Source: an uncultured Coriobacteriaceae bacterium
GTDB lineage: Bacteria; Actinomycetota; Coriobacteriia; Coriobacteriales; UMGS124
Direction: 5' to 3'
NCBI GenBank assembly: GCA_900539345.1
Contig: UQBS01000002.1
Span: forward strand, 15,723 to 79,722
Length of the DNA stretch: 64,000 nucleotides
The notes below the pieces were generated by a model. It worked only from the letters and a program-made list of their open reading frames with translations, was not told where the DNA came from and searched no databases. The first letter of the stretch is position 1. The number at the start of each line of letters is the position of its first letter. This document shows, one piece after another, positions 24,866 through 38,566 of this stretch. Both the position numbers and the translations under genes were made by a program.

Positions 24866-24868
24866 GTA

Positions 24869-25104
24869 GCGGAACCTTATGCGCTGCGTTCCCGGGAGGC
24901 TAGAGTACTCCAGTACACGTCGCCTCCCGGCGCCTTGCGCATCAGAACCCGCGTTTTAGTGGGTGGCGGAACCGGATGCGCTGCGTTCCGCGGAGTCTCA
25001 TGTACGTCCAGTAGGCCAAAGGCCCGCACCGCGCACGTCGGCATCGCGCGCCCTGCGCATCAGAACCCGCGTTTTGGTGGGTGGCGGAACCGGATGCGCT
25101 GAGG
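24869..25104. repeat. family A nested-hairpin repeat array, locus 1 (about 2.3 units, inverted relative to loci 2 and 3)
   Basis: Contains GCGGAACC..ATGCGC, GCGCATCAGAACCCGCGTTTT and the 8-bp variable stem CGGGAGGC/GCCTCCCG. This is the reverse complement of the unit seen at 31740-32232 and 38347-38556. Confidence 0.85.
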
Positions 25105-25804: not shown

Positions 25805-25997
25805 CGTATCTGTTACGGGGCGGGGTGAGATTCCCCACCGGCGGTATGGGTCTGGCCGACCCGAGCCCGCGAGCCAGCAATAGCTGGCCGACCTGGTGAG
25901 ATTCCAGGGCCGACGGTATAGTCCGGATGATAGTAACACCTGGTCGTGCCACACATCGCTACCAGAGACCCGCTGCAGCCGTGCGCGGGTCTTTTTG
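25805..25997 (+). promoter_or_regulatory. FMN riboswitch (RFN element) with terminator expression platform
   Basis: Conserved RFN cores GGGGCGGGGTGAGATTCCCCACCGGCGGTA, AGCCCGCGAGC, GGTGAGATTCCAG, GCCGACGGTATAGTCCGGATGA. P1 is TGTTAC/GTAACA. Followed by hairpin AGACCCGC/GCGGGTCT plus T5 at 25966-25996. Confidence 0.9.
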
Positions 25998-27715: not shown

Positions 27716-28600
27716 ATGCCGCTTGTTTTTGACCACGTGACCTATCACTACGATACCGAGGTCGTGGGACCTGCCCTCGACGACGTGTCGCTTACCGTAA
27801 ACGACGGCGAGTTCGTCGCCTTCATCGGACACACGGGTTCGGGCAAGTCTACGCTGGCGGAGCACTGCAACGCCACCAAGCTGCCCTCATCGGGCACCGT
27901 GACGATGGACGGTCTCTCTACGGCCGACCGCAAGGCTCGCCGTGAGGTGCGCCGCCTGGTGGGCTTCGTCGCCCAGTACCCCGAGTACCAGCTCTTTGCC
28001 GAGACCGTGCGCGAGGACGTGGGCTTTGGCCCGCGCAACCTGGGCATGAACGAGGCCGAGGTGGATGAGGCCGTGCGCGGCGCCATCGCACTTGTGGGTC
28101 TGGATTACGACGCTGTGGCGGAGAAGTCGCCCTTCGACCTGTCGGGCGGTCAGAAGCGCCGCGTGGCGCTTGCCGGCATCATCGCCATGCACCCCAAGGT
28201 ACTCGTGCTTGACGAGCCCATGGTGGGCCTGGACCCCCGCGGCCGTCGCGAGGTGTTCGACATCGTGCGCTCCCTGCACAAGAGCGGCACCACGATCGTC
28301 ATGGTCTCGCACTCCATGGAAGACGTCGCCGAGGCGGCCCAGCGCATCGTGGTGCTCGATCACGGTCGCATCGTCGACGAAGGGGCGCCTGAGGTGGTCT
28401 TCTCCCATTCGGACCTGCTCCATCGCGTGGGCCTCGACGTGCCCCTGCCGGCGCGTGTTGCCAACGACCTGGGCAAGCGCGGCCTCGAGCTGGGATGCGA
28501 GCCCCTCACGCTCGACGCTCTCGCTGATGCCATTGCAGCTCGCCTGGGTGGCAAGGCCGCCGATGCGCAAGCCCGCAGCGTGAAGGGCGGTGAGCGCTAA
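27716..28600 (+). CDS. ecfA2: energy-coupling factor transporter ATPase (EcfA2)
   Basis: Walker A GHTGSGKST, signature LSGGQKRRV, Walker B LVLDEP. Confidence 0.9.
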   Translation: MPLVFDHVTYHYDTEVVGPALDDVSLTVNDGEFVAFIGHTGSGKSTLAEHCNATKLPSSGTVTMDGLSTADRKARREVRRLVGFVAQYPEYQLFAETVREDVGFGPRNLGMNEAEVDEAVRGAIALVGLDYDAVAEKSPFDLSGGQKRRVALAGIIAMHPKVLVLDEPMVGLDPRGRREVFDIVRSLHKSGTTIVMVSHSMEDVAEAAQRIVVLDHGRIVDEGAPEVVFSHSDLLHRVGLDVPLPARVANDLGKRGLELGCEPLTLDALADAIAARLGGKAADAQARSVKGGER

Positions 28601-29400
28601 TGAGTTCGTCCATTACCGTGGGTTCGTTCTACAACGTCAAGTCGCCCTTGCATGCGCTCGACCCGCGCGTAAAGATGGCCATCATGGTCGTCTTCATGGT
28701 GAGCGTGTTCTTGGCGCCGGCGCCTTGGGGCCTCATCCCTGTTGCCGTGATGCTCGTGCTTGCGACGGTCCTTTCCTGCGTGCCCCTGCGCATCGTTGGC
28801 AAGGCAATTAAGCCGCTGTGGTTCTTTGTCGTTTTCACGGCGCTGGTCAACATCTTCCTTGTGCGCGAGGGCAACGTGGTGGCGCACTTCCTGGGGTTCT
28901 CCATCACCGACCATGCGCTCGTCCAAAGCGTCTACATGGCGTTTCGCGTGTTTGCGCTCATGATGGCCGGCACCATTTTCTCGCTGGTGACTTCACCTAT
29001 CTCGATTACCGACGGTGCCGAGCGCCTGCTTGCGCCTCTTGCGCGTTTTGGGCTGCCCGTCCACGAGCTTGCCATGATGTACACCATCGCCATTCGTTTC
29101 ATGCCCACGCTTTTCGACGAGGTCCAGCACATCATGGCTGCGCAGGCTTCGCGCGGCGCCCGCTTTGATGAGGGCCGTCTTATCGACCGTGTCCGCTTCT
29201 TTGTTCCCATTCTGGTGCCGCTCTTTGCAAGTGCCCTGCGGCATGCCGAGGAACTTGCAAGTGCCATGGAGGCTCGCTGCTACGTGGGTGGCGAGGGCCG
29301 CACGCACTACCATGTGCTTGAGGTCCGCAAGGGCGACTGGGTGGCAATCGCCGTCGCCATTTTCTACCTTGCGAGTCTGGTGGTGCTGGCGTTTGTCTAA
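28600..29400 (+). CDS. ecfT: energy-coupling factor transporter transmembrane protein EcfT
   Basis: CbiQ/EcfT family: LHALDPR.K, and the coupling-helix Ala-Arg-Gly motifs (QASRGARF, ASAMEARC). Start overlaps the ecfA2 stop. Confidence 0.9.
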   Translation: MSSSITVGSFYNVKSPLHALDPRVKMAIMVVFMVSVFLAPAPWGLIPVAVMLVLATVLSCVPLRIVGKAIKPLWFFVVFTALVNIFLVREGNVVAHFLGFSITDHALVQSVYMAFRVFALMMAGTIFSLVTSPISITDGAERLLAPLARFGLPVHELAMMYTIAIRFMPTLFDEVQHIMAAQASRGARFDEGRLIDRVRFFVPILVPLFASALRHAEELASAMEARCYVGGEGRTHYHVLEVRKGDWVAIAVAIFYLASLVVLAFV

Positions 29401-29434
29401 CGCCTGCTTTTGTTCGAGGAGAGGGGAGCAGCCG

Positions 29435-29908
29435 ATGTCTGAGGCTGACCTTGCAGGCAGGCCCGTTGTGCGCTTGATGCGTGCTGATGACTATGACCAG
29501 GTCCACGCCCTGTGGGAGCATATTCACGGTTTTGCCCTGCGCTCGCTCGATGATTCGCGCGCCTATGTCGAGCGATTCTTGGAGCGCAACCCTCAAACGA
29601 GCTGTGTGGCCGAGCTTGACGGGCGCATTGTAGGATCCATCCTGTGCGGCCATGATGGCAGGCAGGGGAGCTTCTACCACGTGTGCGTTGCCCCTGAGTG
29701 CCGCAAACATGGTTTGGGCAAGCAGATGGTGCGCTTTTGCTTGCAGGCCTTGGCTGATGAACACATCAGCAAGGCGACGCTTGTGGCCTTCGACGACAAC
29801 GAGGTGGGCAACAAGTTCTGGAACGGCATTGGTTGGACAGCGCGCAAGGATTTCAACTCCTACGAGTTTGCCCTCAATGCGGAGAACATCACGCGCTATG
29901 TGCAGTAG
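29435..29908 (+). CDS. GNAT family N-acetyltransferase
   Basis: 157 aa with the acetyl-CoA binding motif V.PE.R..GLG..M. Start at the ATG at 29435 after GGAGAGGGGAG. Confidence 0.8.
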   Translation: MSEADLAGRPVVRLMRADDYDQVHALWEHIHGFALRSLDDSRAYVERFLERNPQTSCVAELDGRIVGSILCGHDGRQGSFYHVCVAPECRKHGLGKQMVRFCLQALADEHISKATLVAFDDNEVGNKFWNGIGWTARKDFNSYEFALNAENITRYVQ

Positions 29909-29952
29909 TGCCTGGTAGGCTCCGCAAAATAAAGAGTCGCCAGTTGTATCTG

Positions 29953-29988
29953 GAAGGCAGCCGGGAAAATCCGGGTGCCTTCTTTTTT
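29953..29988 (+). terminator. intrinsic terminator after the GNAT gene
   Basis: Stem GAAGGCAGCCGG/CCGGGTGCCTTC (one mismatch) followed by T6. Confidence 0.75.
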
Positions 29989-30069
29989 GGGTAATAATCC
30001 TACTAATAAAGTAGGATTGTGGAGAGAGAATGAAGAGTTTACCTTGGTGAAGAAAAGTGTCGATGTGTG

Positions 30070-30098
30070 TTGACTAGAAGTTAACCAAGGTATATTGT
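30070..30098 (+). promoter_or_regulatory. candidate sigma-70-like promoter facing the family B repeat array
   Basis: TTGACT (30070-30075) with TATATT at a 15-nt spacer or TATTGT at a 17-nt spacer. Lies in an AT-rich island between two convergent, terminated genes. Confidence 0.45.
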
Positions 30099-30146
30099 TT
30101 GCAGCGTCGAAAGGAGCAAACAAGGAGCTCCCAAGACATCCGCTTC

Positions 30147-30446
30147 GTCTCCCTCTCCTTGCCTCCCGGCTTTCCCAGCCGGGAGGCGTCCCAGAGAGAT
30201 GATGGCAAGCGACCTGGTCAGCCTCCCTCTCCTTGGCCCTGCGACCCTCCCCGGTCGCAGGGCCGTCCCAAAAGAGATTCTGACCATGCGTACCGAGTGT
30301 GCCTCCCTCTCCTTGGGAGCCCGCATCCCCATGTGGGCTCCCGTCCCATTGCCTCCCTCTCCTTGGGAGCCTGCACTCCCATGCAGGCTCCCGTCCCATT
30401 GCCTCCCTCTCCTTGGGCCCCGGTCGCATGGCTGGGGCCCGTCCCT
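30147..30446. repeat. family B array: five modules of [G(C/T)CTCCCTCTCCTTG] + [10-11-bp variable hairpin] + [CGTCCC]
   Basis: Modules start at 30147, 30221, 30301, 30351 and 30401. The last three are exactly 50 nt apart. Hairpin arms differ between units but stay complementary. Four of five loops contain TCCC. Confidence 0.9.
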
Positions 30447-30545
30447 GTTTGGGGGACAAAAAAGACCCCGCCGGCGTGAAGTTTGGCGAGGTCTCGTGGT
30501 TGTGGTTCTGTTCTGTCGCGTGTGAGGGCGGCTTCAGGCTTCGCT

Positions 30546-31652
30546 TTAGAGCAGCTTGCCTCCGTCGAGGTTCCTAAAGGTGCGAATCGCCCAGCGCCTG
30601 CGCTTTGTGTTAGGCGGGAACACGGCGTTCACAAGGGGCATGCCCACCTTGAATGCAAAGAAGACGACGAGGCGATGGCGCAGGTCTGCCAGGTTGTGGT
30701 GGGAGTCCTCGAGCATCTGTGCGAGCTTCTTGCGGTAGGGGCAGCGGCGGGCGTATTGCCACCAGGCTTCGGCGAAGTCCACTTTGGGATAGAGCCAGGG
30801 GCGGTTGTCGGGGCCCGCGTAGTGCACGATCTTTGGGGCACGACGGGCCTGTGCGTATGCGCCGCGCATCTCTGGGGGCGCGCAAGGAATGATGTGGCCG
30901 CAGCGCAGTCCCTGCCAGTCGAACAGGGTGTTCCATGCCATGTCGAGCCGTACGAAGTCGCCGCTTGCAAGGTAGTTGAGAACGTCCTGGTCGAGCCACT
31001 GCCAATGGCGCACGGTGGCCAGGGCGATGCATTTGCCGGTGGGGGCGCTGCGGCGGAACTCCGCCAGGTTGAGCACGAGCACGCCTGCCTGGAAGTAGGT
31101 ATACGGGTCCTCGAGACCTACGTCGTTCTTGAGATAGTCGTAAATGGCCTCGTCGTAGCCGCCTGCCATGCCGGCGGTGTCGGCATCGAGCGTGGCTGCA
31201 AGGAGATAGCCATTGAGGTCCACGTCGTAGAGCTTGGCGATGTCGTCGAGCACCACGAGGTCGCAGTCGATATAGGCAGCCTTGTCCACGCCGGGCAGAA
31301 GCTCGGGGGCGAGCAGGCGGTAATACGTCTCACAGGCAAAGTGGCCGTGGCAGGGGAGCGTGGCGTTTCCTGCAGCGGCCATGGCATCAAGGAAGCCCAC
31401 GCGTACGTTGGGTTTGCATGAGGCCTGCCAATGCAGGAGTTCCATGTTTGCGGGGGAGATGTCGCTTGTGAGCACAATGATGTCGTACTCACGCTGCGGG
31501 TCGGAGTTCTCAAGTATCGACTGCAGCGTGACCGACATGTACGGCACGAACTTCTCGTTGCAAGCGAGGAGCACGACCACATCGTTCATGGGTTGGCCGA
31601 GCTCGGCGGCATTCTTGCACAGGCCGATCGGCTGATTCGTCAAGGCATCCAT
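30546..31652 (-). CDS. glycosyltransferase family 8 (retaining, LPS glucosyl/galactosyltransferase-like)
   Basis: GT8 pattern: N-terminal VVLLACNEKFVPYMSVTLQSILENS, DxD (IDCDLVV), later HYAG..KPW. Start is uncertain (GTG 31709, ATG 31652 or ATG 31589); the 31709 extension is built from repeat-derived sequence. Confidence 0.8.
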   Translation of the reverse strand: MDALTNQPIGLCKNAAELGQPMNDVVVLLACNEKFVPYMSVTLQSILENSDPQREYDIIVLTSDISPANMELLHWQASCKPNVRVGFLDAMAAAGNATLPCHGHFACETYYRLLAPELLPGVDKAAYIDCDLVVLDDIAKLYDVDLNGYLLAATLDADTAGMAGGYDEAIYDYLKNDVGLEDPYTYFQAGVLVLNLAEFRRSAPTGKCIALATVRHWQWLDQDVLNYLASGDFVRLDMAWNTLFDWQGLRCGHIIPCAPPEMRGAYAQARRAPKIVHYAGPDNRPWLYPKVDFAEAWWQYARRCPYRKKLAQMLEDSHHNLADLRHRLVVFFAFKVGMPLVNAVFPPNTKRRRWAIRTFRNLDGGKLL

Positions 31653-31739
31653 AGGGGAATTGTACACGCCCACTGCACATTTCGCCAAGAGAACCCGCCT
31701 TCTGACCACAAACCCACTCCACCGGTCCTACGAGAACAC

Positions 31740-32232
31740 GACAGGCGAGGCCCCGCCCCACTAAAACGCGGGTTCTGATGCACAAGGCGCACGGGGCCGC
31801 TGTGCGCCTTGCGGGCCCTTGGCCTACTAGACGTACACCAAAGGTGCGCACCGCGCGTGAGGTCCCGCGGAACGCGGCGCATCAGGTTCCGCCCTTTAAA
31901 ACGCAGGTTCTGATGCGCAAGGCGCCGGGAGGCGATGTGTACTAGATGTACACCAAAGGTGCGCACCGCGCGTGAGCCTCCCGGCACGGAGTGCCCTTCG
32001 CGACGAGTCCCGTGGAGAACGCAGCGCATCAGGTTCCGCCCTTTAAAACGCAGGTTCTCACGCGCAAGGCGCACGAAGCCGATGTGTACTTGGAGTACAT
32101 GAGGCTTCGTGGAACGCGGCGCATCAGGTTCCGCCCGTACAAACGCGGGTTCTCGTCCGCAAGGCGCACGGGGCCGATGCGTACTAGATGTACGTGAGGT
32201 CCCGTGGAACGCGGCGGACGAGGTTCCGCAAC
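31740..32232. repeat. family A nested-hairpin repeat array, locus 2 (about 4.5 tandem units)
   Basis: Units are AAAACGC(R)GGTTCTGATGCGCAAGGCGC-[8 nt]-GATGYGTAC...GTACRTGA-[complementary 8 nt]-GGAACGCGGCGCATCAGGTTCCGCC. It fills the whole gap between the transglutaminase-like gene and the GT8 gene. Confidence 0.9.
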
Positions 32233-32235
32233 TCG

Positions 32236-33741
32236 TTAGCTGGCGCGGTAGCCGGTATCGAGGGTGTAGGAGAGTGAAGTCGCCGGCAGCAACCAGCCGT
32301 TGGACGAAAGCGAGGCGTCGATGAGGCACTGCCTGCCGTCGAGGCTCGTGAGGAACACAAGGCCGTGGTCGCCCCAGTTGCCGCTCTGGCGCAGCACCAG
32401 GCAGGGTTCGGCGATGGCGTCGGCGTAGCCGTAGTAGCGCATGATGTACTGGATGGCCGCCGCGAACTCGTAGCAGTTGGCCGTCATGTTGGTGAAGCAC
32501 TGCTTGGCGTAGGTGATGCGCCAGTCGCCCTCAACGTCCCAAGGACGCTGGTTCTGGTCGTTCTCGACGTAGTCAATCCATGAGATGTGCAGGTAGGTGT
32601 AGTAAGCGTTGTCACCGGCATCCAGGCCGTCCTGCGCCTGGCTGTCGCAGTAGTTCTTCACCAGCTGGTCGAGCTCGGCGTCGCCCGTGGTGAAGTAGCC
32701 GGTGGGCGACCAGGGGTCCTCGACGCCGCCCGAGTTGTAGGCTGCGTCCTTGTTGAAAGACGTGGTCGAGTAGCTCCACACGTCTCCCTGGGCGATGGTC
32801 GAGACATCATCCACGTCGTGGGGAGTCTGGTCGTGCGAGTCGGTTGCGGTCTGCTGTGTGGCAGACGTCGCATCGGTCGTGCCGGTGTCGGTGCTCGTGC
32901 CTGCAGCAGGAGTGTCGCTCGGTGTCGCGCCGGCGCTTGTGCCTGCGGACGTGGTGTCAGTCGTTGAGGAGGTGGCAGGGGCGCTGTCCTGCGAGCTTTC
33001 TGCTTGCACGTAGCCCTTATTGGCATTGCCGGCCACGCAACTGCCCACGAGGGCAATGATGACAAGCAGGGCCACGGCACCTACGGCTGCTACCGGGTAG
33101 ATGGGGTTTGACTGCATGAGCTCGACCATGCGCGCGAGTGGTTCAGGCAGCGCGGGGATCGCGGCTGATGCATCATGGGCTGCATGGGTGGCGACATACT
33201 CCTGGCTCGAGTGCGTGCGGGCGGTGCCATGCGCGTCTTGCGCGTATCGGGTGCCTTCGCGCTGTGATTGGCTGGAATGGTCGTCTGTAGCATACGCAGA
33301 ACGATAGCTGCCCTGACCATAGTCGTCGTAACGGGTGTCACGGCGGGCTTCATGGCCCTCTTGGGCATACCCGCCGCGCCAAGAGGCATCGCCTTGGTCA
33401 TATCCGGTTTGCTGGGCGTAATACGGCTGCTGGGCGTAGCGTGCGCTCGAGCTGGCTCGGTCCGTGCCGTACTCATGGCTCGTGGCACGCGCGCTGTAGC
33501 CGCCCTCGGCATACCTTGCATGGCTGTCGTCGGCATACTGGCGCTGCGTCTTGGGGCGACCAGACGGATAGCAGTCCTGCGTGTTGGGACTGTCGTAACG
33601 CTGGACACGAGGCTGCGTCGCTTCGCTGCGGTCATACCCGGCGCTATATGAATGGCCATAGTCGCGCGAGGAGGTGCGCCCGCCCTGTGTAGGGGAGGCG
33701 TGGCGGTTGGTGTTATCGCTGCGGTAACGCTCGTCTGCCAT
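32236..33741 (-). CDS. membrane-anchored protein with disordered cytoplasmic N-terminus and extracellular transglutaminase-like (Cys-His-Asp) domain
   Basis: N-terminal ~200 aa rich in Y/S/R/Q/D, a single TM (IYPVAAVGAVALLVIIALVGSCVAG), a Thr/Ser/Ala linker, and a C-terminal domain with candidate catalytic residues in NCYEFAAA, GDHGLVF and CLIDAS. Confidence 0.6.
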   Translation of the reverse strand: MADERYRSDNTNRHASPTQGGRTSSRDYGHSYSAGYDRSEATQPRVQRYDSPNTQDCYPSGRPKTQRQYADDSHARYAEGGYSARATSHEYGTDRASSSARYAQQPYYAQQTGYDQGDASWRGGYAQEGHEARRDTRYDDYGQGSYRSAYATDDHSSQSQREGTRYAQDAHGTARTHSSQEYVATHAAHDASAAIPALPEPLARMVELMQSNPIYPVAAVGAVALLVIIALVGSCVAGNANKGYVQAESSQDSAPATSSTTDTTSAGTSAGATPSDTPAAGTSTDTGTTDATSATQQTATDSHDQTPHDVDDVSTIAQGDVWSYSTTSFNKDAAYNSGGVEDPWSPTGYFTTGDAELDQLVKNYCDSQAQDGLDAGDNAYYTYLHISWIDYVENDQNQRPWDVEGDWRITYAKQCFTNMTANCYEFAAAIQYIMRYYGYADAIAEPCLVLRQSGNWGDHGLVFLTSLDGRQCLIDASLSSNGWLLPATSLSYTLDTGYRAS

Positions 33742-33757
33742 GAGGGCGGGTCACATC

Positions 33758-33922
33758 CTAGAACTGGTTGTAGATGAAGTCGGCACTGCCGCCGAAATCG
33801 GAGAAGGCTGAGAAGAGGAAGATGCCGAAAACAATGGCGCAAAAAGCGAGGGCCACCGCGATGCACGCAATGCCGTTGTGCTCGGCAAACCAGGTGCGTC
33901 CCGTCTCCTTGACCTTTGCCAT
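33758..33922 (-). CDS. dltX: DltX-like small membrane protein (D-alanylation accessory protein)
   Basis: 54 aa with one TM and an exact C-terminus ...GGSADFIYNQF-stop. This resembles the conserved C-terminal FxYxxF-type hexapeptide of DltX as I recall it (FIYNEF in Firmicutes). Lies 58 nt downstream of dltD. Confidence 0.6.
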   Translation of the reverse strand: MAKVKETGRTWFAEHNGIACIAVALAFCAIVFGIFLFSAFSDFGGSADFIYNQF

Positions 33923-33980
33923 GGTGAGGGGCTGCTTAGGCTCCTTCTCCTTGAAATGCTGGCCAGATTGCGTCGCCACG

Positions 33981-38346: not shown

Positions 38347-38556
38347 CGTGGCACATCAGGTTCCGCCTCCCACCAAAAAGCGGGTTCTGATGCGCAAGGC
38401 GCGCAGGGCCGACGTGTACTGGGGTACTCTAGGTCCTGCGGAACGCGGCGCATCAGGTTCCGCCCATACACACGCAGGTTCTGGCCTGCAAGGCGTCGGG
38501 AGGCGATGCGTACTAGATGTACGTGAGCCTCCCGAGAACGCAGCAGGCCAGGTTCT
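38347..38556. repeat. family A nested-hairpin repeat array, locus 3 (about 2.2 units)
   Basis: Same unit and orientation as locus 2. Variable stems are GCAGGGCC/GGTCCTGC and TCGGGAGGC/GCCTCCCGA. Occupies most of the 269-nt gap upstream of dltA. Confidence 0.9.
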
Positions 38557-38566
38557 GCATCACACC

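Follow-up and report, generated by a model that had tools for sequence, protein, structure and literature searches.

What does a tandem array of five hairpin modules encode when it lies between two convergent genes of an uncultured gut bacterium, and on which of the two strands does it act? The array occupies positions 30146-30445 (plus strand) of a stretch of 64,000 nt (contig UQBS01000002.1 of assembly GCA_900539345.1, from an uncultured Coriobacteriaceae bacterium) that was analyzed as a whole and that we call the window. A first-pass annotation, made from the letters of the DNA, had proposed that the modules form a promoter-fronted RNA able to pair with Shine-Dalgarno sequences. Coriobacteriia (Collinsella and relatives) are an abundant lineage of the human gut; to our knowledge, almost nothing is known of RNA regulators in this class, and we know of no classical small RNA (sRNA) chaperones of the proteobacterial kind in its members. 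The analysis reported here indicates that a conserved, promoter-driven, structured non-coding RNA gene very probably exists on the plus strand of this locus, and it lends strong support to the array as a candidate regulatory RNA specific to this lineage.

Five tandem modules combine an invariant pyrimidine tract with a variable hairpin

Each of the five modules consists of the tract CTCCCTCTCCTTG, a perfect or near-perfect inverted repeat of 10-12 bp and the sequence CGTCCC, in this order (Table 1). The 13-mer tracts start at 30149, 30223, 30303, 30353, and 30403, that is, with spacings of 74, 80, 50, and 50 nt. Outside the array, no exact copy of CTCCCTCTCCTTG was found in the window; with up to two mismatches allowed, the window holds seven matches against 1.76 expected, a number reached by none of 100 shuffles. 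A covariance model of the module scored the five copies at 54-69 bits (E values of about 1e-12 to 1e-15) and found no further significant module in the window, where its other match (33938-33976) reached 10.8 bits with an E value of about 1. The loops of modules 1 to 5 read TTCCC, CTCCCC, CCCC, CTCCCA, and GCAT. What the first-pass annotation had read directly from the sequence, namely five modules of tract, hairpin, and CGTCCC, the listed hairpin arms, and C-rich loops in four of the five, was borne out in full.

Across the family of related arrays described below, a module is made of a (G)CCUCCCUCUCCUU(G) tract, a G+C-rich stem of 10-12 bp, a loop of 4-15 nt, and CG-UCCC after the stem. The loop contains UCCC in most modules, and each module carries three UCCC-type elements. 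The 10-nt core of the tract, CUCCCUCUCC, is invariant or shows C-to-U changes only, while the stems vary freely; as a proposed design only, its tract-mutant form would be GAGGGAGAGG. Short modules of 47-52 nt follow each other directly, and the mean predicted unpaired probability of their tracts is 0.72. Long-linker modules of 66-80 nt continue with a purine run (AGAGAG, AAAGAGA, AGGGAG, or AAGGGGA) and then with unique sequence; the mean unpaired probability of their tracts is 0.51, and the linker is able to fold onto the tract and its 5′ flank. Compared with shuffled linkers, the duplex between a linker and its own tract had a mean energy z of −1.9, the z being negative in all 18 distinct modules.

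Both forms occur in the window. The linker of module 1, AGAGAGATGA, pairs with part of its own tract, and module 2 is enclosed by an outer helix, TGGTCAG/CTGACCA; the tract of module 3 has a predicted unpaired probability of 0.78. Module 4 is missing from the closest relatives (L047, L075, and L102; such handles denote the loci fetched for comparison) and is a recent, window-specific duplicate of module 3. Folding of the whole array region on the plus strand gave a z of −9.2 relative to shuffles.

The array belongs to a small family in related Coriobacteriales

One genome per species, from 185,579 species, was scanned with the pattern CTCCCTCTCCTTG-N20-34-CGTCCC. Among the 108 loci matched, 97 had no hairpin in the interval and were chance matches, and 11 had stems of 9-11 bp. 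All 11 array-bearing loci come from Coriobacteriales or Coriobacteriaceae gut genomes by our assignment. Two of these contigs are filed as Acutalibacteraceae and Alistipes (Alistipes onderdonkii) and are probably misbinned, because they show Coriobacteriales synteny and encode an 81-82% identical GNAT acetyltransferase. A further locus, L251, was reached through its 84% identical GNAT protein, not through the DNA pattern, and has at least five modules with an identical tract.

Arrays were thus found in about ten related Coriobacteriales genomes, with 2, 4, 5, 6, or 9 modules: four in L075 and L102, five in the window and L100, six in L033 and L103, nine in L037, at least six in L020, whose contig ends inside the array, and two in L039, L051, and L053. 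The last three represent a second locus, at which the array follows a NUDIX gene; at the main locus, the order of flavin mononucleotide (FMN) riboswitch, energy-coupling factor (ECF) transporter genes, GNAT gene, and array is kept throughout. Three genomes have both loci, and whole-genome scans gave one or two loci per genome. In the window and the 11 fetched loci, the covariance model recognized 54 modules, all of them inside arrays and in one orientation per array. The element is conserved in related Coriobacteriia, as a check proposed with the first-pass annotation had asked; the small size of the family, the second locus in some genomes, and the variable module number go beyond what that annotation described.

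The flanking DNA of the clade members is 79-95% identical to that of the window. Where GNAT homologues share 70-77% identity, their genes occupy other neighborhoods (e.g., next to rimP-nusA-infB) without an array, and the family is therefore confined to one clade. A metagenome scan with CCTCCCTCTCCN{35,65}CCTCCCTCTCC gave, among the matches listed, only CT-rich low-complexity DNA and unrelated REP-like palindromes (REP, repetitive extragenic palindromic), with no new members; the 18 matches of the same pattern in viral contigs were all unrelated, and a megablast of 29000-31500 against plasmids returned no match. The elements in the environmental metagenome contigs L176 (1480-1760, minus strand), L182 (1-130), and L139 (1220-1340) are of another kind: there, CCTCCCTCTCC itself forms one arm of a stem, opposite GGAGAGGGG, within tandem REP-like palindromes. 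The 11-mer CCTCCCTCTCC would be shared with these palindromes by chance or convergence.

The contigs of L020, L047, and L251 begin or break inside arrays, and the fetched stretch of L102 ends just past its array. Such arrays break metagenome assemblies, and the contigs that carry them surface under other taxa, which is relevant to annotation.

Covariation and wobble pairs point to a structured plus-strand RNA

The covariation analysis covered 52 modules (41 distinct), re-aligned to the covariance model and hence in a model-fitted alignment. Standard pairs made up 97.1% of the pair cells, and double-sided changes were present at 9 of the 11 pairs, in 98 cells; since the modules are paralogues and orthologues of each other, these cell counts overstate the number of independent events. 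The covariation score was 0.663 against 0.170 for shuffles, none of 500 shuffles reached it, and sliding the 3′ partners by one to three columns reduced it to 0.04-0.16. RNAalifold, applied to a plain, unfitted MAFFT alignment, returned the same hairpin with double changes at eight of nine pairs. Even the nearly identical modules 3 and 4 differ by a compensatory C-G to U-A exchange and by a G·U to G-C change. Both analyses therefore agree with the earlier statement that structure is kept while sequence is not.

The wobble pairs provided the decisive strand test. Read on the plus strand, the inner ten pairs comprise 380 Watson-Crick pairs, 22 G·U pairs, and 2 A·C pairs, and 34 of 40 distinct modules close with a U·G pair. 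Because each G·U pair becomes an A·C mismatch on the other strand, the functional molecule is identified as a plus-strand RNA, neither the DNA nor the minus strand; nor would a palindrome in DNA or a protein site on double-stranded DNA give rise to such an asymmetry.

Two other identities were considered and rejected. A protein-coding gene does not fit, as none of the repeat periods (50, 74, and 80 nt) is divisible by 3 and any gain or loss of modules shifts the frame; Pfam gave no significant match for the three open reading frames (ORFs) that overlap the array. Nor does a CRISPR array (clustered regularly interspaced short palindromic repeats), since the “spacers” would themselves be perfect, covarying palindromes, and no cas-like domain was found in the six flanking ORFs scanned (27716-33741).

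A conserved promoter marks the array as a probable stand-alone transcription unit

The promoter that the first-pass annotation placed ahead of the array, a sigma-70-type site facing the modules (Table 1), is conserved at all homologous loci, and this conservation supports the independent plus-strand transcription unit proposed with it. Consensus sites of this quality are expected 0.2 times in shuffles. The site is set in an island of 43% G+C with flanks of 60-67% G+C, and transcription is predicted to start near 30104-30106. We aligned the 170 nt upstream of ten arrays, with both locus types included. In this alignment, all species share TTGAC in the −35 hexamer and TA..T in the −10 hexamer, the latter being TATTGT at locus 1 and TATCTT or TAATCT at locus 2. 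Just past the predicted start, the leader has the invariant columns G-T-C, AAGGA, C, A, and C, and in L037 its stem reads AGGAGCU/AGCUCCU.

Upstream of the promoter lies a motif that marks the family. Allowing a spacer of 8-12 nt, AGGATTGTG-N8-12-GAAGAGTT occurs at 11 of 11 array promoters and at none of 243 other fetched loci; the window holds a single exact copy of AGGATTGTG, at the array promoter. A Rex or CRP/FNR box was judged by eye and rejected as a match for this motif, the spacing of the half-sites being a misfit. At locus 1 (window, L020, L033, L037, L075, L100, L102, L103, and L251), a perfect palindrome precedes the −35 hexamer by about 50-70 nt; locus 2 has its right half only. 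In seven aligned locus-1 promoters, the arms are kept without covariation and the spacer varies, which suggests a protein operator; the palindrome is a probable binding site of a transcription factor.

At the other end, the tail after the last module reads (C/T)TCC(C)-(U)GUUU-GGG in every array and is not a U-run; in the window, the terminal hairpin is followed by CGUCCCUGUUU, again not a U-run. A terminator scan of 29500-31000 that required perfect stems gave no match, and the terminators of the GNAT and GT8 genes were revealed by folding. The former would isolate the array from upstream transcription. The latter, on the minus strand, folds at −26.6 kcal/mol over a 61-nt stretch that includes the small tail hairpin, is followed by UUUUUU and has a z of −4.5; on the plus strand, its hairpin reaches −17.8 kcal/mol with a z of −1.2. 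Because the neighboring genes are terminated or convergent at both loci, the array appears to be a stand-alone transcription unit. We infer from the sequence both that the region is transcribed and where the transcript ends.

The array may encode a multi-seed anti-Shine-Dalgarno RNA

The tract contains CCUCC and CUCCUU, and AAGGAGAGGGAGG, an extended Shine-Dalgarno sequence, is its perfect complement. CCUCC and CUCCUU form the core of the anti-Shine-Dalgarno end of 16S rRNA. The best-supported explanation of the array is an sRNA that blocks translation through several anti-Shine-Dalgarno seeds, because its motif logic is shared with the cuckoo/alpha-r14, RsaE/RoxS, 6C, and sX13 RNAs; we consider the case for this explanation about evenly balanced. 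The RNA gene would extend from 30104 to about 30460-30510 on the plus strand, giving a transcript of roughly 350-400 nt, driven by the conserved sigma-70-type promoter and the family-specific motif. Each module would offer its invariant, mostly single-stranded pyrimidine tract as a redundant seed, with the UCCC loops as secondary seeds, and these would pair with the purine-rich Shine-Dalgarno regions of mRNAs and thereby block the initiation of translation. The hairpins would act as spacers and as nuclease-resistant scaffolds. In “closed” modules, the purine run of the long linker (AGAGAG or AGGGAG) would fold back on the module's own tract, and in “open” modules, those of the 50-nt type, the tract would be left free. 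We infer this mode of action, and with it the targets.

A candidate target lies next to the array itself. The ribosome-binding site of the GNAT gene, CGAGGAGAGGGGAGC, 4 nt before the AUG, is the best complement of the tract on both strands of the window (128 kb) at −26.5 kcal/mol, the next best site having −24.5 kcal/mol. It is kept in the four closest genomes (L033, L075, L102, and L103; −26.4 to −28.7 kcal/mol), and L100 and L251 likewise have its core, GAGAGGGGA. We regard this site as a lead only. Another purine-rich stretch, CAAGGAGAAGGAG (33895-33953, minus strand), differs from a perfect tract complement at a single position and is kept in L047. On the minus strand, it precedes the start AUG-GCA-AAG-GUC-AAG-GAG-ACG-GGA by 19 nt; it is a possible second target site, poorly placed as a Shine-Dalgarno sequence.

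Several observations weigh against an anti-Shine-Dalgarno sRNA. The GNAT site, noticed post hoc, leads by no more than 2 kcal/mol. In a crude scan of the window, ribosome-binding sites accounted for 10 of 107 strong tract-complementary sites, which is no enrichment over a background of 13%; energy-only target scanning is not discriminating in a genome of 62% G+C. A core of 10-13 nt, in up to nine copies at a 50-nt pitch, exceeds the needs of a Shine-Dalgarno pairing of 5-8 nt, and the long core and regular pitch may fit a protein-binding platform equally well. In about half of the modules, the tract is predicted to be partly masked by the module itself, and neither scanning nor folding found a canonical plus-strand intrinsic terminator right after the last module. 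Finally, the invariance of the tract is in part an effect of ascertainment, as the homologues were gathered with an exact-match pattern; this is mitigated by L251, found through its protein, and by about 20 modules outside the search pattern that still keep the core.

The strongest competitor takes up two of these points. An RNA that sequesters protein would use its CU tracts and UCCC loops to titrate a pyrimidine-rich single-stranded-RNA-binding protein, as CsrB and RsmZ titrate CsrA; candidates are a KH-domain protein (KhpA/KhpB), Rho, S1, or a cold-shock-domain protein. Such a sponge or scaffold would explain why the conserved core exceeds the Shine-Dalgarno pairing length, why no general enrichment of ribosome-binding sites appears among the predicted pairing sites, and why two to nine modules, each with three UCCC-type elements and, in the short form, at a regular pitch of 47-52 nt, make the molecule multivalent. 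Relatives with 90-95% flank identity carry 4, 5, or 6 modules, as expected if the dosage of sites matters. However, no protein gene is consistently linked to both loci, locus 1 following GNAT and locus 2 NUDIX, and the known RNAs of the same motif logic (cuckoo/alpha-r14, RsaE, 6C, and sX13) act by base pairing (PMC4615179, PMC6486639, PMC3771888, PMC4409812), so that we hold sequestration of a protein to be rather unlikely. The bolder claim that the array is a multivalent sponge built of pyrimidine tracts and the first such RNA in Actinomycetota, rather than a conventional mRNA-specific sRNA, is in our estimate a minority prospect of the same order. It comes in two possible versions: the RNA may titrate a global binder of C/U-rich RNA (a KhpA/B-type KH protein, Rho, or S1) as a pyrimidine counterpart of CsrB/CsrA, or it may compete en masse with ribosomes for strong Shine-Dalgarno sites as a global, dose-dependent brake on translation. 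If true, how much the sponge can bind would be determined by its “closed” and “open” modules and by an evolvable copy number, and either a protein sponge or a global translation brake would constitute a new regulatory class.

A local or structural RNA, acting as an insulator or decoy between convergent genes that stops read-through, interferes with GT8, or protects 3′ ends, would suit the position of locus 1 between convergent genes and beside a bidirectional terminator as well as the very stable hairpins (region z −9.2), but it leaves unexplained the invariant single-stranded tract, the dedicated and conserved promoter with its upstream control motif, and the second locus, where the same promoter and tract occur in another gene context; we consider it improbable. 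Very improbable, and largely refuted, is a repeat that acts at the level of DNA without RNA function, whether similar to REP elements, bacterial interspersed mosaic elements (BIMEs), or miniature inverted-repeat transposable elements (MITEs), or a set of protein-binding DNA sites. GC-rich tandem palindromes between convergent genes are indeed what REP clusters typically look like, the arrays differ in module number and are where many metagenome-assembled contigs break off, and the window contains another, truly dispersed repeat family. Against the REP/MITE identity, which the first-pass annotation had itself named as a threat to its proposal, stand the one or two loci per genome with no other significant copy in 64 kb, the single orientation of the modules behind their own conserved promoter, and the 22 G·U against 2 A·C pairs, which are not produced by DNA cruciforms or double-strand binding sites. 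These wobble pairs also count against the minus-strand transcript that had been offered as an alternative, in which five AAGGAGAGGGAGG “super-SD” sites and GGGA loops would make a sponge for 30S subunits or a CsrA-like protein. The minus strand folds stably too (z −8.0), and GGGA-containing loops do resemble CsrA sites, but standard pairing in the inner stem falls from 98.3% to 93.4% when the 22 G·U pairs turn into A·C, the conserved −35 and −10 hexamers point in the plus direction, and the array lies just beyond the strong GT8 terminator with no promoter in between. We find a functional minus-strand transcript scarcely credible.

For the multi-seed anti-Shine-Dalgarno RNA, the design put forward here (an invariant seed present two to nine times, covarying scaffolds, and a dedicated promoter) is explicit and thus directly testable.

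Genomic neighborhood of the array

The array lies downstream of an ECF transporter operon made of an S component, two ATPases, EcfT/CbiQ, and the final GNAT gene, and the arrangement of FMN riboswitch, ECF genes, and GNAT gene is also present in L020, L033, L037, and L251 (Table 1). Some sources name close homologues of the GNAT protein “RimI-like.” In the GNAT homologues of L248, L250, and L253 (70-77% identity), the gene is divergent and adjoins rimP-nusA-ylxR-infB. The acetyltransferase may be translation-related, which would link it thematically to an anti-Shine-Dalgarno RNA.

A second repeat family, unrelated to the array, is dispersed over three intergenic sites of the window (24866-25101, 31754-32230, and 38366-38559), where it forms tandem clusters. 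Its units of about 95-147 nt (CCGCCC..TTAAAACGCAGGTTCTGATGCGCAAGGCGC..GGGAGGCGATGTGTACT) occur in both orientations and look REP- or MITE-like; this family had no Rfam match at the gathering threshold. A 286-aa ORF (31640-32500, minus strand) has no Pfam match, overlaps one of the clusters, and is probably spurious.

Table 1. Positions in the window of the array, its putative control elements, and the neighboring genes
Feature	Positions	Strand	Description
FMN riboswitch	25807-25942	+	110 bits; heads the riboflavin-type ECF transporter operon
GNAT ribosome-binding site	29414-29431	+	Candidate target; purine-rich CGAGGAGAGGGGAGCAGC; start codon at 29435
GNAT acetyltransferase gene	29435-29908	+	Upstream neighbor; last gene of the ECF operon
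Intrinsic terminator of the GNAT/ECF operon	29953-29990	+	GAAGGCAGCCGG-GAAAAT-CCGGGTGCCTTC, then TTTTTT; −23 kcal/mol, z −3.9
Palindrome	29997-30019	.	AATCCTAC-N7-GTAGGATT; perfect; upstream of the promoter; candidate operator
Upstream motif	30013-30040	+	AGGATTGTG-N11-GAAGAGTT; invariant columns in the alignment of ten promoters, both locus types
Sigma-70-type promoter	30070-30098	+	−35 TTGACT, N17, −10 TATTGT; 9 of 12 matches in a consensus scan
5′ leader	30106-30137	+	Conserved GUC-AAGGAG-C; small hairpin GGAGC/GCUCC; −10.7 kcal/mol, z −3.4
Module 1	30146-30192	+	Long-linker, “closed”; hairpin CCTCCCGGCT/AGCCGGGAGG, loop TTCCC, then CGTCCC; 63.2 bits
Module 2	30220-30269	+	Long-linker; hairpin GCCCTGCGACC/GGTCGCAGGGC, loop CTCCCC; 54 bits
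Module 3	30300-30347	+	Short, 50 nt, “open”; hairpin with a G·U pair, loop CCCC; 65.9 bits
Module 4	30350-30397	+	Short; 90% identical to module 3; 68.7 bits
Module 5 (terminal)	30400-30445	+	Hairpin GGCCCCGGTC/GGCTGGGGCC with two G·U pairs, loop GCAT; 57.7 bits
3′ tail	30441-30457	+	GUCCC-UGUUUG-GGGGAC; small hairpin in the fold; possible 3′ end region
GT8 terminator hairpin	30463-30495	.	Strong on the minus strand, weak on the plus strand; may also stop the array transcript
GT8 glycosyltransferase gene	30546-31709	-	Convergent downstream neighbor

Comparison with known RNA families

All 4,227 Rfam families were searched, with E values up to 10 for the region and at the gathering threshold for seven homologous loci. 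Neither the region nor the seven loci gave a match at the gathering threshold, in keeping with the first-pass annotation, which had not recognized the array as a known element; the region gave only weak look-alikes with C-rich loops, such as mraW (23 bits against a gathering threshold of 50), sX13 (RF02232; 20.4 bits against 50), which was the second-best weak match, and suhB/mmgR (RF00519, clan CL00108; 13.2 bits against 41, E = 8.4). The covariance models of RsaE/RoxS (RF01820) and 6C (RF01066) had no match in the array region at E values up to 10. Collinsella-1 (RF01700), by all appearances the only published Collinsella-specific sRNA motif, is unrelated in sequence and was rejected, as it gave no cmscan match and its published Stockholm sequences contain neither the CU tract nor the module. 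We found no description of the array element in the literature, the catalogue of thousands of candidate RNAs from the human microbiome (PMC8040213) lying outside this comparison, and the element is probably a previously undescribed RNA of gut Coriobacteriaceae.

The nearest parallel is the cuckoo/alpha-r14 family of Alphaproteobacteria (CcsR1-4, NfeR1, SmelC397, and others), in which two to four adjacent hairpins each carry CCUCCUCCC in the loop, and of which NfeR1 has been described to block ribosome-binding sites by means of three redundant anti-Shine-Dalgarno seeds (PMC4615179, PMC10746234). Like these RNAs, the array is a modular chain of hairpins of variable number, with an identical, ultraconserved, CU-rich, anti-Shine-Dalgarno-like motif in each module and compensating changes in the stems (PMC4615179, PMC10746234). 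The differences are that its motif, CCUCCCUCUCCUU, lies in the spacer 5′ of the hairpin, its loops carrying no more than UCCC, that it comprises two to nine modules, and that its hosts are Coriobacteriales of the phylum Actinomycetota. The shared pattern of an ultraconserved motif on variable stems thus supports, by analogy, a similar way of working and not membership in this family.

Other sRNAs share parts of this logic. RsaE/RoxS of Firmicutes uses several unpaired UCCC/CCCC motifs to pair with the G-rich Shine-Dalgarno regions of many mRNAs (PMC4409812), and the array likewise has several C-rich motifs per RNA; RsaE/RoxS, however, is a single, fixed RNA of about 100 nt without a long CU tract, whereas the array is a 300-nt tandem from another phylum. 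The 6C RNA of high-G+C Gram-positive bacteria is an actinobacterial, chaperone-independent sRNA that binds mRNAs via C-rich loops (PMC6486639), but it has a fixed architecture of two hairpins whose C-rich loops measure at least 6 nt, while the loops of the array hold three or four C and its main conserved element lies outside the hairpins. In sX13 of Xanthomonas, stem-loops with C-rich loop motifs target G-rich sites in mRNAs (PMC3771888); these stem-loops are fixed at three, and the array, which scores below the gathering threshold, is not homologous to them. With CsrB, RsmY, and RsmZ, the array has in common a short single-stranded or loop motif repeated in variable number on a hairpin scaffold, but those RNAs present GGA motifs to CsrA, and the plus strand of the array presents pyrimidine motifs, GGGA being found only on the disfavored minus strand.

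Taken together, the array element would function in the manner of an anti-Shine-Dalgarno or C-rich-seed sRNA, yet is a member of none of the described families. Judged from its architecture, what would be new is a seed placed in the spacer instead of the loop, a tandem of up to nine modules, and the coexistence of “open” and “closed” module forms. The pairing of a C-rich seed with Shine-Dalgarno sequences, a solution that recurs in RsaE, 6C, sX13, and cuckoo, would thereby gain both a new architecture and a new context at the level of phylum.

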